Of a stretch of 64,000 nt of DNA, positions 13,771 to 56,590 are shown in pieces. The notes beneath the pieces were generated by a model that had not been told where the DNA came from, did not search any database, and worked only from the letters and a program-made list of their open reading frames with translations. A program made the translations under genes and the position numbers. Each line of letters begins with the position of its first letter. Position 1 is the stretch's first letter. Source of the stretch: Bacteroidota bacterium (GTDB lineage Bacteria > Bacteroidota > Bacteroidia > UKL13-3); contig JAIYAT010000031.1 in assembly GCA_027488905.1 (NCBI GenBank), forward strand, positions 36,748 through 100,747, written 5' to 3'.

Positions 13771-15075
13771 TTATTCAAATAGTGACTCATATACCTTTTC
13801 CCAACCTAACCAACCTTCTTCTTTGTCAAAAGATGAGTTGTGCCAAATGGAAATAAATTTCCCTTGATATTTTTGCGTTACTTCAATCATTTCTTTAATG
13901 CATTGTTTAGCGGTTACTTGATCGTAATTCAAATAGTTTTTTAAGGTAACATCCATAATGCAAGGCGAGTAAAGTAATAAGTCAAATTTGGTATTATTAA
14001 TTAAATCATATGCCTCAAATGGCCTGCAAGTTGAAGCTCTAAAACCTATTTGGTCTGCATAGCATAAGGTATAATCTGCTTCAATTTCAAGCTTTACTAA
14101 GTTTTTGAAGCTTTCTGGTAACTTTAGTTTTAAAAAATGATACCTGCTAATTTTTGGTGCATTTCCTGTGATTTTTTCAAAAGTATCTACTTCTGATTTT
14201 AATAAATTAAAGTCAAAGGATGCCTTATATGAAGGATGTATGCCACATTTATGACTTTCAGATAATCTATTGTAAAGCTCAATTGCCTCTATACTTTCTG
14301 GGTTAATATTTTTATCATGCTTCCCATTATTGGCAAGCAAGAAAAAAAACTTAGTCTCGATATTTGATGTTCCTGCAAATCTTGTAAGGTAATTGTACGT
14401 GTCATATGGGTCATTTTCTATAGATTTAAATATGTTATTATTCGGTTTGAACCGAAGCAGTGAGCCTACATATTTTTTTGCAATTTCTAGTTTTGTTCTG
14501 CCTTTATATTTATACGCAAAATCTATATCAATGGTGTTTATTTTGGTAAAATGATGGGATTTAAAGGATAAGGCAGGATATACTGCTAATATTTTTTTCT
14601 TGAATTCTTCTACCCAATGGTCAATTAGCGGAATCTTTAAGAAGTTGTTTTTATAGGCAATTGAACTTGAGGCTTTAAATCTATTGTGTTCATCTCTTTG
14701 CTCGCTACTGTATTCTTCATATCTACTCAATAAATAAAAGCTAGCTGAAAGCAAATCAAATGTTAAGTATGAAGTTTCAATCTGAAAATCTGGAACTTCT
14801 TCATAAGCAAATTTAAAGAAAACCTTTAGCCAAATAGGGTCATCTACCACCTCAATTTTTTGTGGAATTATTTTGGTTTCAAAGAGCAAACTATTAGATG
14901 GAATATTTACAACTCCTTCTATGATGTAAGGCGAATAGTTTAGTCGGATAGATTTTGATTTAGTAAAATAATCTAAGTTATCTGTAATCTTATAATTTAT
15001 CCCTAATTGTTGAACCAATATTTGATCTAGGATGTATTTAATCCTGTCATTTTCTTCTGCCGCAAATACTAGCAT
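13771..15075 (-). CDS. polysaccharide deacetylase-like protein
   Basis: FYLLSRYEEY, TIDID, GIHPSY, RYHFL, IWHN motifs. Confidence 0.75.
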   Translation of the reverse strand: MLVFAAEENDRIKYILDQILVQQLGINYKITDNLDYFTKSKSIRLNYSPYIIEGVVNIPSNSLLFETKIIPQKIEVVDDPIWLKVFFKFAYEEVPDFQIETSYLTFDLLSASFYLLSRYEEYSSEQRDEHNRFKASSSIAYKNNFLKIPLIDHWVEEFKKKILAVYPALSFKSHHFTKINTIDIDFAYKYKGRTKLEIAKKYVGSLLRFKPNNNIFKSIENDPYDTYNYLTRFAGTSNIETKFFFLLANNGKHDKNINPESIEAIELYNRLSESHKCGIHPSYKASFDFNLLKSEVDTFEKITGNAPKISRYHFLKLKLPESFKNLVKLEIEADYTLCYADQIGFRASTCRPFEAYDLINNTKFDLLLYSPCIMDVTLKNYLNYDQVTAKQCIKEMIEVTQKYQGKFISIWHNSSFDKEEGWLGWEKVYESLFE

Positions 15076-16385
15076 TATTTGTTCTTATTTAGAGAGTAAT
15101 TCATTATATCAATCAGGTTTTTAGGGTTTAATGCCTTTAAAAAAATGTTATAGTTTTCCTTGTAGTTATATCCAAAAACCATATAAATCAAGGCTATATA
15201 TAATCCTGCAACCAAGGCTAAGGCTGCACCTGAAATACCATAAATAGGAATGATAAATAAATCTAGAATAAGCACAGTAATCGCAATCAAAATTTGCATA
15301 GCAACTACATACTTTTGTTTTTGCTCAGCAAGCATCCACATTGCCCAAGCGGTTCCCCAGAAAACTGGAATGCTACTTAAAACATGTATCTTAAAAATGA
15401 TAGCAGATTGAGGAAATTTATCACCATATAGGAAGCCGATTACAATATCCCCAAATAACAAAGCACCTACAATTACAAAAATAGCAAGCCAAAGCATTAA
15501 GCTATAGAGTTGAGTGAGCCTCATAATTTGTAGTTCCCTATTTTGTCTATTATTAACAATCCCAGGAAAAACAGCTGCACAAATGGCAATAGGGATAAAA
15601 TATGAAGCCTGACTAATTCTTAATCCAGCACTATACTGCCCAACCAAACTCATGTCATTTAATAGTTTATCAATAAGTAAAGTGTCGGCATTTAAATAAA
15701 TCATCTGAATTGCCGTTGATATAATAAGTGGAACGGCATATTTGAGTAAAAACCTAGACTCTTTTCTGGAAAACTGCCAATTGCTTATTTTGAAGCCTTG
15801 ATTTCGATAAAAGTAAATTTGAATCATTGCAGTTAAACCTGCTTCAAAGGCTGCCATTGTTGCAAACCATATTAAACCTGCTTCAAAGTAAATTAATGCT
15901 AACTTAGTAAATGCAGAAACAGACAAGGTAATAACCTGATTTATTGCTGTTAATTTTCCTTTTACTTGGGATTGAAAATAGAAGTCAATAACAGTAAATG
16001 ACTGGAACATAATGCTTATACTCAAAAGGAAAAATATTAGCGTTGTTTCTGCTGATTTATTGAAATAAGCCCAAGTTGTAGCCAATATAATTACCCATAA
16101 AGAACCTAGCAAACGCAATGAAAATGCTGTTCCAAGAATTTTGTTAAAGTCTTCCTTTCGTGTAAGTATCTCTCTTACAACCAAACTATCTAATCCCAAA
16201 GTTGAAATAATTGTTAAAATAGCTATAACACTTAAACCTAGGCTGATTATACCATATTGTTCTGCACCTAAATACCGTACTACTAAGATACCAACCAAAA
16301 TACCGCTGATTATTCTCGATGCCTTCTCAAGAAGAATCCAAAAGGAATTTCCTACATAATTGTTTTTTTGTTCTACTTCTGCCAT
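15075..16385 (-). CDS. Wzx-type polysaccharide flippase (MOP superfamily)
   Basis: Many TM segments; VRYLGAEQYG, VGQYSAG, IPIYGISGAA motifs. Confidence 0.85.
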   Translation of the reverse strand: MAEVEQKNNYVGNSFWILLEKASRIISGILVGILVVRYLGAEQYGIISLGLSVIAILTIISTLGLDSLVVREILTRKEDFNKILGTAFSLRLLGSLWVIILATTWAYFNKSAETTLIFFLLSISIMFQSFTVIDFYFQSQVKGKLTAINQVITLSVSAFTKLALIYFEAGLIWFATMAAFEAGLTAMIQIYFYRNQGFKISNWQFSRKESRFLLKYAVPLIISTAIQMIYLNADTLLIDKLLNDMSLVGQYSAGLRISQASYFIPIAICAAVFPGIVNNRQNRELQIMRLTQLYSLMLWLAIFVIVGALLFGDIVIGFLYGDKFPQSAIIFKIHVLSSIPVFWGTAWAMWMLAEQKQKYVVAMQILIAITVLILDLFIIPIYGISGAALALVAGLYIALIYMVFGYNYKENYNIFLKALNPKNLIDIMNYSLNKNK

Positions 16386-53668: not shown

Positions 53669-54298
53669 TTGGAAAGTTTTTGGGATTTATTTCAGCCTGA
53701 AGAGCTCATAAGGTTTGGTGGTTTAGCTTTATTGCTAATCATCATTTTTTTGGAAAATGGAATCTTCTTTGGATTCTTTCTTCCAGGAGATTCTTTACTC
53801 TTTACCGCTGGTTTACTTGCCTACCCAAGTGTGGGTGTATTGGAGGTTAGCTTACAAAATCTGATTACTTATATTGGTTTGTCTGCTATGGCAGGGTATT
53901 ATGCAGGATATGTTTTTGGGTATAAAACGGGTGAGGCGCTTTACAAAAGAAAGGACTCGTTGTTTTTTAAAAAGAAATACATAACCATTGCCGAAGATTT
54001 TTATAAAAAATATGGCGGTATTGCCTTGGTGGTTGGTAGGTTTTTACCAATTGTAAGAACTTTTGCGCCGATATTAGCGGGTATGGTGAAAGTAAAGCAT
54101 CATATTTTTCTTTTTTACAATTTAATTGGTGCACTGCTTTGGCCCTTAACCATTGTAAGCGCTGGCTATTATGTGGGTGCTGTATTCCCAAATGCACTCG
54201 ATTACCTTAACTATATCATTATAGGTTTTATTGCTGTAACTACTATTCCAGTTGCAAATACCTATTGGAAGGAAAGAAAAACAAAGCAAGCAAATTAA
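53669..54298 (+). CDS. DedA family membrane protein
   Basis: FFLPGDSLLF..G and GRFLPIVRTF motifs. Confidence 0.95.
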   Translation: MESFWDLFQPEELIRFGGLALLLIIIFLENGIFFGFFLPGDSLLFTAGLLAYPSVGVLEVSLQNLITYIGLSAMAGYYAGYVFGYKTGEALYKRKDSLFFKKKYITIAEDFYKKYGGIALVVGRFLPIVRTFAPILAGMVKVKHHIFLFYNLIGALLWPLTIVSAGYYVGAVFPNALDYLNYIIIGFIAVTTIPVANTYWKERKTKQAN

Positions 54299-54356
54299 AC
54301 CTAAGCTGCCCATCGGCGACCTTTTAAGCTCCCTTGCAAGGCTGCTAGAGATAGTT

Positions 54357-54813
54357 GAACTAGGTCAACTCAGAACAGAACTAGGTTTAGCTCAGAACAG
54401 AACTAGGTCATCTCAAAACAGAACTAGGTTTATCTTGGAATAGAACTAGGTTTAGCTCAGAACAGAACTAGGTCATCTCAAAACAGAACTAGGTTTATCT
54501 TGGAACAGAACTAGGTTTAGTTCAGAACAGAACTAGGTTTATCTTGGAACAGAACTAGGTTTACCCCAAAACGGAACTAGGTTTATCTTGGAATAGAACT
54601 AGGTTTACCTTGGAACAGAACTAGGTTCACCTCAAAACAGAACTAGGTTTACCTTGGAATAGAACTAGGTCATCTCGGAACAGAACTAGGTTTACCTCAA
54701 AACAGAACTAGGTCATCTCGGAACAGAACTAGGTTTACCTCAAAACAGAACTAGGTTTAGCTCGAAACAAAACTAGGTTTACCTTGAAGAAGAACTAGAT
54801 TTAGCTCGGATCA
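54357..54813. repeat. tandem array of 21 units of 21-22 bp with conserved core GAACTAGGT
   Basis: Units start at 54357, 54378, 54400, 54421, 54443, 54465, 54486, 54508, 54530, 54552, 54574, 54596, 54618, 54640, 54662, 54683, 54705, 54726, 54748, 54770, 54792. Confidence 0.97.
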
Positions 54814-54851
54814 GGAAGCGTCTCATTAAGTGTGTACACAGATTAACACAG

Positions 54852-54965
54852 AAAAAGACCACGGTCGTTTGTCGATAGGCCTTTGCAGATGCCAAAAAAT
54901 TAGATGATTCTGTTTAAAATCAAAATAAAACTATCGTCTTTGGTCTATGGACCATGGTCTTTTTT
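54852..54965. repeat. long-range inverted repeat downstream of the array
   Basis: AAAAAGACCACGGTC (54852) pairs 14/15 with GACCATGGTCTTTTT (54950); inner CGATAG/CTATCG also pair. Confidence 0.7.
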
Positions 54966-55034
54966 CAGAAACCCCCACTCATTGTTTTTCAGTATTTTTT
55001 TATTAACCTTTGGTATACCCAATTTTTATAGCTT

Positions 55035-55673
55035 ATGAATCCTAAACTCTTTTTTAACCCTTTTCAGAGAAGTCTAAAATTCCTTTTGCTTTTGTCTTTA
55101 TTTTTTGGAATAAGCAATTGTAAAAGAGATGACGGCTGTAATAAAGAATATGAAACCTACTTCGATTCCTCCTTTTTCGATAGTAGTGAATTAGCATTAA
55201 TTCCAGATTGGGCGGGCGATTCTCTTTTCTATTATTCAAATGAAGGGGATACAGCTTATTTACATTGTTATTCGAGATATTATGGGTTTAGGCCAGATGT
55301 TGCAGGATCAAAAAATGTAACCTGCGAATACTACGAATATTATCATTATCCATTTTATTCATTTCATTTCGAGTCAAATGTGCCTGAATTGGATGTAATG
55401 CAAATTGAAATTTATAAAGAATCCTTGATGAATCGGAGTAAAGAATTAGCAAAATCCTACTTAGTTGCTAAAAATATGGTAGATTTTCCCTTGGAATTAC
55501 TTGGTAGTGATAGTCTTGCAAATGATTCAATAATACTTGAGGATGGCAGCTTGGAAAAAGGATTTTTATCAGCTACTTCAAGTTATAGTTTAAACTTAAG
55601 AATAGGATTTTTAAGAATCAAAAGGCTAAACGGTAAAAAATGGACATTGTACAGATACACTTTAGCTAATTAA
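55035..55673 (+). CDS. hypothetical lipoprotein
   Basis: Hydrophobic signal ending ISNC followed by KRDD; 212 aa, Tyr-rich. Confidence 0.7.
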   Translation: MNPKLFFNPFQRSLKFLLLLSLFFGISNCKRDDGCNKEYETYFDSSFFDSSELALIPDWAGDSLFYYSNEGDTAYLHCYSRYYGFRPDVAGSKNVTCEYYEYYHYPFYSFHFESNVPELDVMQIEIYKESLMNRSKELAKSYLVAKNMVDFPLELLGSDSLANDSIILEDGSLEKGFLSATSSYSLNLRIGFLRIKRLNGKKWTLYRYTLAN

Positions 55674-55912
55674 ACTTACAAACTATGGAACATTTCACCA
55701 AATTTTCATTGGACAAATGAAATGATTGCAATTAAATTGGATTTCTCCTCGGCTGCCTCACTGCGACAATTGGTTCAACCCAAGTTAAATTTATTATACT
55801 GATATGAATTTTTTTCCCTTTTGTTTTCAATTTCGATACTTTTGACAGCAACATCAATTGTAACATAGTTGTTTTATTGGGACAATAACATCCCGCAGGA
55901 TTGATTAAAAAA

Positions 55913-56590
55913 ATGAGCCAGGGAAAACTTATTCTTGTTCCAACCCCCATCGGTAATCTCGAAGACATTACCCTTAGAGGCTTGCGCATGCTCAAAGAAG
56001 CAGATGCCATCTTAGCCGAGGACACCCGAGTAAGCGGAAAGCTGCTAAAACACTACGAAATCAATAGACCTTTGTGGAGCTACCATGCCCATAACGAGCA
56101 CAAACAATTGGCACATTATATTGCCGAACTGCAATCGGGTAAGACCCTAGCCTTAATCACAGATGCTGGAACTCCCGCCATTAGCGACCCCGGGTTTTTA
56201 CTAGTTAGGGAATGTCTCAAAGAAAATATTATGGTTGATTGTTTGCCAGGTGCCACAGCTTTTGTGCCTGCACTTGTCAAAAGCGGATTACCATCTGATG
56301 CCTTTACTTTCCTTGGCTTCTTGCCAGAAAAAAAAGGAAGACAAACTGCTTTTACTAAGCTTCAATCAGAAGAAAACACAATGGTGTTTTACGAAAGCCC
56401 TCATAGACTGCTTAAAACACTACTGCAATTGTGCGAATTTCTTGGAGAAGATAGAAGATGCAGCGTAAGCAGAGAACTTACTAAAATGTTCGAAGAAACC
56501 ATTAATGGCACTCTTAGAGAAGTATTAACACATTTTGAAACCCACCCAATTAAAGGAGAATTTGTACTTGTTGTCGAAGGTAAAACATAA
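55913..56590 (+). CDS. rsmI: 16S rRNA C1402 2'-O-methyltransferase
   Basis: PTPIGNLEDIT, AEDTR, DAGTPAISDPG, YESPHR, RELTK motifs. Confidence 0.97.
   Translation: MSQGKLILVPTPIGNLEDITLRGLRMLKEADAILAEDTRVSGKLLKHYEINRPLWSYHAHNEHKQLAHYIAELQSGKTLALITDAGTPAISDPGFLLVRECLKENIMVDCLPGATAFVPALVKSGLPSDAFTFLGFLPEKKGRQTAFTKLQSEENTMVFYESPHRLLKTLLQLCEFLGEDRRCSVSRELTKMFEETINGTLREVLTHFETHPIKGEFVLVVEGKT

Follow-up and report, generated by a model that had tools for sequence, protein, structure and literature searches.

A 21-unit, 22-bp-type intergenic array of a freshwater Bacteroidota bacterium and its most likely place among arrays that travel with mobile DNA

The locus and the structure of the array

We analysed a stretch of 64,000 nucleotides, called here the window, from the genome of an uncultured freshwater member of Bacteroidota (G000; 3.55 Mb, 40 contigs). 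Coordinates given without a contig refer to the window. By reading the translations of the ORFs between 50 and 59 kb we recognized purF, lptB, cytochrome c, lnt and a large secreted protein, as well as purE, DedA, a lipoprotein and rsmI (Pfam for three). A sequence-only reading of this DNA had stated that rep, par, cas and integrase genes are absent nearby, and none was present among these ORFs, as judged from their translations.

The left flank of the locus is the gene of a DedA/VTT-domain membrane protein (53669-54298, + strand; Pfam VTT_dom, E = 1.3e-16). Its stop codon is followed by a non-repetitive leader of 58 bp (54299-54356) and then by a tandem array of the 22-bp type (54357-54813, + strand), whose units belong to what we call family C. 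The last unit is touched by the outer end of a 26-mer that resembles the left terminal inverted repeat of the IS256 family (54814-54839, + strand; 24/26 identical). Further downstream there is a long inverted repeat (54852-54964, + strand), whose arms of 15 nt are 93% complementary and separated by 83 nt, with a T run at its end. A stretch of 133 bp (54982-55114, + strand), comprising an upstream region and the 5' coding part of the next gene, is 87% identical to a paralogous locus on contig C32 of G000. This gene is a predicted lipoprotein ORF of 212 aa (55035-55673, + strand; signal peptide then Cys), 43% identical to its paralogue (G000:C32:124441-125103), and neither of the two lipoproteins matched a Pfam family. 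The right flank is an rsmI-like methyltransferase gene (55901-56590, + strand; Pfam TP_methylase, E = 1.7e-31).

We compared this locus with the corresponding loci of 24 congeners. The DedA gene was adjacent to purE in all 24. In the 22 congeners with DedA and rsmI on one contig, the distance between these genes was 22-1079 bp, versus 1,614 bp here. The gap was 22-32 bp in G024 and G007 (32 bp in G007) and approximately 220 bp in G016, while in G011 it contained a reverse-strand ORF of 260 aa. We found no match to the array between DedA and rsmI in any of the 24 congeners. The segment of approximately 1.6 kb that carries the array, the IS256-type repeat, the hairpin and the orphan lipoprotein gene is absent from the congeners between these two genes. 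In the nearest relative, G018 (90% identity), the same place was occupied by two reverse-strand ORFs, by eye a PIN-type toxin-antitoxin pair, followed by the same hairpin-plus-upstream module and then by a different lipoprotein gene; the array was absent. The parts of this module (54852-55034 of the window) are a CACAGAT-type motif, the inverted repeat described above, whose arms are 15 nt long, and a conserved stretch upstream of the gene, TTATTAACCTTTGGTATACCCAA. The module precedes at least four different lipoprotein genes in G018 and two in G000.

The array consists of 21 units with the consensus GAACTAGGTTTATCTCGGAACA, arranged head-to-tail and spacerless, six of them 21 bp and fifteen 22 bp long. 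The core GAACTAGGT was exact in units 1-19, and it was replaced by AAACTAGGT in unit 20 and by GAACTAGAT in unit 21, so the sequence-only reading was right in describing 19 exact cores and a single mismatch in each of the last two. The exact core did not occur anywhere else in the window on either strand. TRF reported a period of 22 with 21.0 copies (score 494) and a higher-order period of 65 bp (score 514). We also confirmed the higher-order duplications described earlier: the block of units 2-4 recurs as units 5-7 with a single T/C difference, and units 15-16 recur unchanged as units 17-18. A comparison of all units with their consensus gave 47 transitions and 8 transversions, most of which fall at positions 11, 13, 16, 17 and 18 of the unit. 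Core positions carried 2.0 bits of information and linker positions 0.2-1.7 bits. The earlier description of linkers drawn from a few recurring types holds, and this "alphabet" can be reduced to a few, mostly two-state sites dominated by transitions. A long ORF had been considered excluded; among ORFs of at least 40 aa, only one frame of 63 aa (54252-54443) reaches the array.

With 457 bp in 21 units, the period averages 21.76 bp. On a helix of 10.5 bp per turn, this gives a drift of approximately 26 degrees per unit and approximately 1.5 turns over the array, and therefore only adjacent cores share a face of the helix. The claim that all cores lie on about one DNA face was thus wrong.

In CRISPR arrays, repeats of approximately 28-37 bp alternate with diverse spacers that are about as long, and cas genes are present. 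We rejected a CRISPR array here, as the conserved part is 9-16 bp, the variable part is 6-13 bp and consists of few transition variants, and no cas-like gene was seen at 50-59 kb.

Further, we looked at how the array is supported by sequencing data. Logan contigs from 4 runs of 4 studies contained internal pieces of the array of 53-113 nt, with zero differing letters and with depth similar to that of the flanks. All of these contigs end inside the array, so that the agreement covers internal pieces and not the order or number of units. In the assembly itself, the array is interior to a contig of 118 kb. It is extremely unlikely that the array is an artefact, that is, a collapsed or inflated repeat. 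Such a reading would fit the Logan contigs that stop within the array, the sister array that breaks the assembly between contigs C5 and C37, and three family-A arrays that lie at contig ends; against it are the identical unit junctions in the runs of four studies, the flank-like depth and the internal position in the 118-kb contig. The sequence-only reading had named an artefact as one way to refute it, and, on these internal pieces, the array sequence is not artefactual. An apparent second allele at 55020-55129 (8 differences, then divergence) in the Logan contigs was rejected as cross-mapping of the C32 paralogue and is not a strain variant.

Arrays of the same period in the genome and its relatives

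We ran TRF over the whole genome G000. Fifteen of the 20 top-scoring tandem repeats had a period of 22 or of 65/66/88. After merging, we obtained 28 arrays with a period of approximately 22 or a multiple of it, and 22 of the 28 were intergenic. From a reading of the TRF consensus units, we assigned 12 of these to family A, 4 to family B and 3 to family C, with 3 others left over. Families A-C together comprise 19 array pieces, all of them intergenic, and their three units are unrelated. Family A has the core AGTAGCT and 12 pieces, three of which lie at contig ends; family B has the core GGGTACC and 4 pieces. The family-C loci are the array of the window, C33:15060-15355 and an array that extends across the contig break C5/C37. 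Two more family-C arrays were found in the congener G007 (C4:4726-4997 and C3:22182-22455). A search for further arrays had been proposed earlier; it returned family C at two more loci of G000 and at two of G007. The array and its core, as first described, are real, but that description missed the population of 19 pieces in three families and the IS256-type repeat at the 3' end. Overall, its interpretation is partly supported.

Family C is narrowly distributed. We scanned 185,579 species genomes, a set that may leave out records of the window's own genome, with the family-C pattern, and the contig of G007:C3 was the sole return. An order-level search covered the same 119 genomes as the family-level search and added nothing. 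A search for solo family-C units with a 16-mer and up to 2 mismatches gave 9 matches outside arrays, all of them chance-like. The left junction of the array had 0 matches in a metagenome scan. The family-C pattern returned two short metagenome contigs with a related motif, irregularly spaced. In these ORF-poor contigs (L066:1230-1330 and L067), ATAACTAGGTTTA occurs five times at an irregular spacing of roughly 20-40 bp; this motif corresponds to the family-C core extended by the TTTA behind it.

The arrays of G000 showed every kind of orientation with respect to neighbouring genes, and at 2 loci they lie between convergent genes. BLAST revealed flank segments of 65-215 bp common to copies of family-A and family-B arrays. 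A BLAST comparison of array flanks found no leader or tail common to the family-C copies, and the leader at 54299-54356 had no BLAST similarity to the 5' flanks of other arrays.

Two side observations concern these sequences. Several palindromes of 4 bp are strongly depleted in G000 (observed/expected: GATC 0.24, ACGT 0.29, TCGA 0.41, GTAC 0.45, CTAG 0.57), and the array cores are nevertheless built around CTAG, GTAC and AGCT. In addition, at C32:123540-123620 and C33:13701-13790, one family-A array and the gene-plus-array of C33 directly follow tRNA-like genes recognized by eye. The region downstream of tRNA genes is the usual place of integrated islands.

We wanted to know how evenly the unit is conserved. 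In 66 units from four older family-C arrays, two of G000 and two of G007, AACT and GT were conserved at 91-95%, the TTA after the core at 73-86%, the AAACA tail at 61-79% and the six linker positions at 35-77%; the segmentation into units was anchored on core similarity, which biases toward higher core conservation. With this segmentation, the core was better kept than the linkers (91-95% vs 35-77%), the opposite of what the sequence-only reading had listed as a refutation.

The array at C5/C37 is syntenic with that at G007:C4, and both follow the start of the rnhA gene, which was read from translation. The gene flanking the C5/C37 array has 78% identity to G007, and the BLAST match ends at about the gene start. 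When units of the two arrays were matched by linkers alone, the best value was obtained at offset 0 (7.5/13; 5.6-6.9 at other offsets). Three terminal units are clearly orthologous and the arrays are partly colinear. This synteny and partial colinearity indicate that such arrays can persist.

In G018, the rnhA locus carries a pair of genes, by eye nucleotidyltransferase/HEPN-like, in the place where G000 and G007 have the array. The two intergenic sites compared between G018 and G000 (G018:C70 and G018:C1) are variable hot spots, and it looks as if small cassettes are exchanged there.

More distant genomes were also searched. In G114, which belongs to another genus of the same family, arrays with an AACTRGTT core were present at 3 loci, with unrelated linkers. 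At class level, a loose core pattern was found in 15 of 401 genomes, and the reversed control was also found in 15 of 401. We therefore do not claim a universal core. An array with a period of 21/22 bp is nothing unusual in Bacteroidia.

The terminal repeat that the 26-mer at the 3' end of the array matches at 24 of 26 positions bounds intact copies of an IS256-family element in the congeners G003, G009, G022 and G035; this element has an ORF of 398 aa (Pfam Transposase_mut, E = 6.4e-114). We found five IS256-type motifs in G000, the one described above and those at C17:9490, C17:9688, C23:66766 and C32:541812. Each of the five has a 22-bp array at a distance of 4-243 bp, with all three families represented, while the chance that a random position of G000 lies within 250 bp of an array is 0.4%. 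A sixth, degenerate motif faces the array at C32:123797. The motif always points its outer end at the array. GA-rich low-complexity spacers often lie between the motif and the array.

No inverted partner of the 26-mer was detected at 54250-56000 or, genome-wide, among the 5 motif matches, and tblastn detected no IS256 transposase gene in this assembly. The intact IS copies of congeners whose flanks were read had no adjoining array. A lone terminal repeat with its outer end toward the array places the array outside the IS-type end, and not enclosed in a MITE. The association between IS256-type ends and arrays is real, though it is not the enclosed MITE architecture of BrickBuilt, a minisatellite described below.

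RNA, contingency and protein-loading readings

We analysed whether the array could be a source of RNA. The sequence-only reading had suggested a repeat-derived ncRNA. A transcript of the repeats, either as a long 3' UTR of DedA or as an RNA of its own, would be an unstructured 21-fold repeat that could titrate a protein binding single-strand RNA or be cut to unit length. The course from the DedA stop codon to the array is free of terminator-like sites; the sole such site after DedA (54941-54954 plus tail, + strand) lies 3' of the array, inside the long inverted repeat. The + strand of the array folded less well than shuffled sequences (z = +2.31), so the motif would be exposed, and the - strand folded no better than shuffles (z = +0.51). 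We regard this reading as very unlikely, because structure is absent on both strands, an Rfam scan of 50-60 kb gave nothing at E<=1 in or beside the array (one chance-level miRNA match was obtained elsewhere), the arrays of the genome lie in every orientation, including between convergent genes, and the variable part offers a few transition variants in place of a varied guide-like set. The suggested ncRNA is thus unsupported. Pairing of adjacent near-palindromic cores into hairpins was considered and dropped, as their stability was not above that of shuffles. A scan for sigma-70-type promoters, whose model does not cover Bacteroidota promoters, gave 0 sites.

The earlier reading had also considered a contingency VNTR, in which gain or loss of units alters the expression of the downstream lipoprotein gene. 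Homogeneous tandem repeats are slippage-prone, and in G000 both lipoprotein paralogues lie approximately 220 bp downstream of a 22-bp array. However, the array at C32 is of family A, so the arrays of the two paralogues come from different unit families, and the lipoprotein gene at 55035-55673 is separated from its array by a hairpin with a T run. None of the 7 congener homologues with a testable upstream region (290-900 bp) had a 22-bp-type array there, although one had a 69-bp repeat. Furthermore, the same internal array pieces were present in 4 runs of 4 studies with no indel reported, in contigs that break in the array. A contingency locus found no comparative support and is, in our opinion, highly improbable.

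In plasmid iterons and centromere arrays, direct repeats are spaced approximately two helical turns apart, and each combines a conserved recognition part with a variable rest. The array resembles them in both respects. It differs in being chromosomal, in having approximately 20 companions per genome and up to 21 units, and in lacking a rep or par gene among the 50-59 kb ORFs. A check of GC skew had been proposed, and it revealed neither a switch near the array nor an ori/ter signature, as the cumulative skew rises steadily through the region. The array is neither an iteron origin nor a centromere.

Loading of a protein can nevertheless be considered in a broader sense. A sequence-specific protein might bind the near-palindromic core (AAC-N3-GTT within AACTRRGTT) and coat the array at a two-turn spacing, with possible roles as a roadblock or in insulation, silencing of acquired DNA or pairing. 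The higher conservation of the core than of the linkers (0.91-0.95 vs 0.35-0.77) in 66 units of four older arrays of two species argues for such a platform, and so do the 22-bp period kept across unrelated unit families, the one orthologous array that has persisted since the split of G000 and G007, and the G114 arrays with an AACTRGTT core and unrelated linkers at 3 loci. A candidate partner is a 159-aa all-helical hypothetical protein encoded at G000:C33:14485-14964, just upstream of the family-C array at 15060-15355. Its homologues in the genus occupy 9 loci (L070-L078), and 8 of the 9 have an array with a period of 21/22 or a multiple within 700 bp downstream, strong at four loci and weak at four. 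This hints that some arrays partner a protein. The arrays at these loci follow within approximately 100-170 bp, with periods of 21/22 or 42/44/84/88, and their units are mutually unrelated.

The properties of the 159-aa protein speak less in favour of this platform. Its AlphaFold model had a pLDDT of 82.4, Foldseek gave nothing against the PDB at E<=0.001, and a protein atlas gave unnamed Bacteroidota clusters alone. It has no Pfam match, as is also the case for a 256-aa array-linked protein, and neither BLASTP nor hhalign detected kinship between the two; no DNA-binding domain was recognized. Two homologues that are 80% identical precede arrays with unrelated units, which argues against a sequence specified by the protein. 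The class-level core pattern was no commoner than its reversed control, the nearest relative G018 has no array at either of the two loci examined, and the cores leave a common face over the full array. Taken together, we consider the protein-loading platform unlikely.

In a more general form, the 22-bp two-turn arrays would be the cis half of an undescribed Bacteroidota gene-plus-array module. Small helical proteins of no known fold, such as the 159-aa protein, whose genes directly precede such arrays at most homologous loci, would load on them, and orphan arrays of the same family, including the one studied here, would serve as trans platforms that organise or silence acquired cassette DNA. 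If this were true, the constant period across unrelated units would reflect the geometry of a protein filament and not shared ancestry. We consider this idea improbable.

Probable origin of the array and its relation to known systems

The array most likely belongs to a wider set of intergenic arrays of 22-bp period that travel with mobile or cassette DNA in freshwater Bacteroidota. Further, we think, though with little confidence to spare, that it is probably a young copy of a dispersed 22-bp minisatellite, restricted to this lineage, similar to BrickBuilt and of mobile origin, and that this copy was amplified locally. This reading draws on the genome-wide set of arrays, the narrow occurrence of family C, the absence of the segment from congeners, the IS256-type ends, the higher-order duplications and the excess of transitions, the steady rise of the GC skew and the analogy with BrickBuilt. 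A seed of one or a few units would have been brought in by mobile DNA and would have grown at the site itself, either by unequal recombination or by slippage during replication. This expansion may have left its traces in the 65-bp blocks of higher order and in the exact duplication of units 2-4 and of units 15-16. The six linker positions would then have drifted via transitions and been reshuffled between units. The uniform core may result from recency and concerted evolution, and possibly also from recognition by a transposase or a host DNA-binding protein. A dedicated cellular function would not be needed, and effects on neighbouring genes would be incidental.

Several findings stand against this minisatellite origin. 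Purely neutral decay would not be expected to leave the core so much better conserved than the linker, and slippage alone does not account for the 22-bp period common to three unrelated families. Arrays can be old, as the synteny between C5/C37 and G007:C4 indicates. Moreover, there is no inverted partner of the terminal repeat, no IS256 transposase gene in the assembly and no convincing solo unit, and the intact IS copies of congeners with flanks read were not beside arrays. The constant period across families and the uneven conservation within the unit keep a functional reading alive.

To our knowledge, BrickBuilt is the only described analogue, and its mechanism is unexplained. BrickBuilt of Porphyromonas gingivalis is described as a spacerless minisatellite of 23 nt with 19 intergenic copies; the conserved sites of its unit occupy the first half, and terminal repeats of the IS type occur in its flanks (PMC4596501, Klein et al. 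2015). The arrays studied here share with BrickBuilt a Bacteroidota host, spacerless units of 22-23 nt in up to approximately 22 copies, a conserved first half and a variable second half of the unit, approximately 19 strictly intergenic copies per genome, a narrow host range with presence and absence differing among relatives, and IS-type terminal repeats in the flanks with no transposase inside (PMC4596501). The differences are that the unit here has an unrelated sequence and a period of 22 versus 23 bp, that three unit families coexist here, that the flanking repeat is IS256-type here versus IS5-type, that a single terminal repeat points its outer end to the array here without enclosing it, and that family C has no common leader and tail (PMC4596501). 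Since the enclosure by two terminal repeats is missing, we do not count the array as a member of BrickBuilt.

The array alone is ordinary repeat DNA. What gives it a wider meaning is that a genome of an uncultured freshwater Bacteroidota bacterium has approximately twenty arrays of 22-bp period in several unrelated unit families, and that these are linked with IS256-type ends and with variable hot spots between genes, at two of which the relative G018 has ORF pairs read by eye as toxin-antitoxin pairs. The central puzzle is that the period is always about two helical turns. On the practical side, arrays of 22 bp break assemblies, and automated annotation may take them for iterons or CRISPR arrays.

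One more type of repeat system was considered. The genome G000 has one IS200-like Y1 transposase gene beside a 23-bp array. REP/BIME clusters with a RAYT transposase are short, clustered intergenic repeats, and the arrays studied here are likewise short and intergenic. In contrast to REP/BIME, the family-C units lie head-to-tail, are not inverted and form no hairpins; the Y1 gene is on another contig and its adjoining repeat is unrelated in sequence. The Y1 gene (G000:C18:2093-2744; Pfam Y1_Tnp, E = 2e-26) has short GC-rich hairpins on its flanks, and the repeat beside it has 5.5 copies of a 23-bp unit with a 13-bp palindrome. This gene and its repeat may represent a REP/RAYT-type system.
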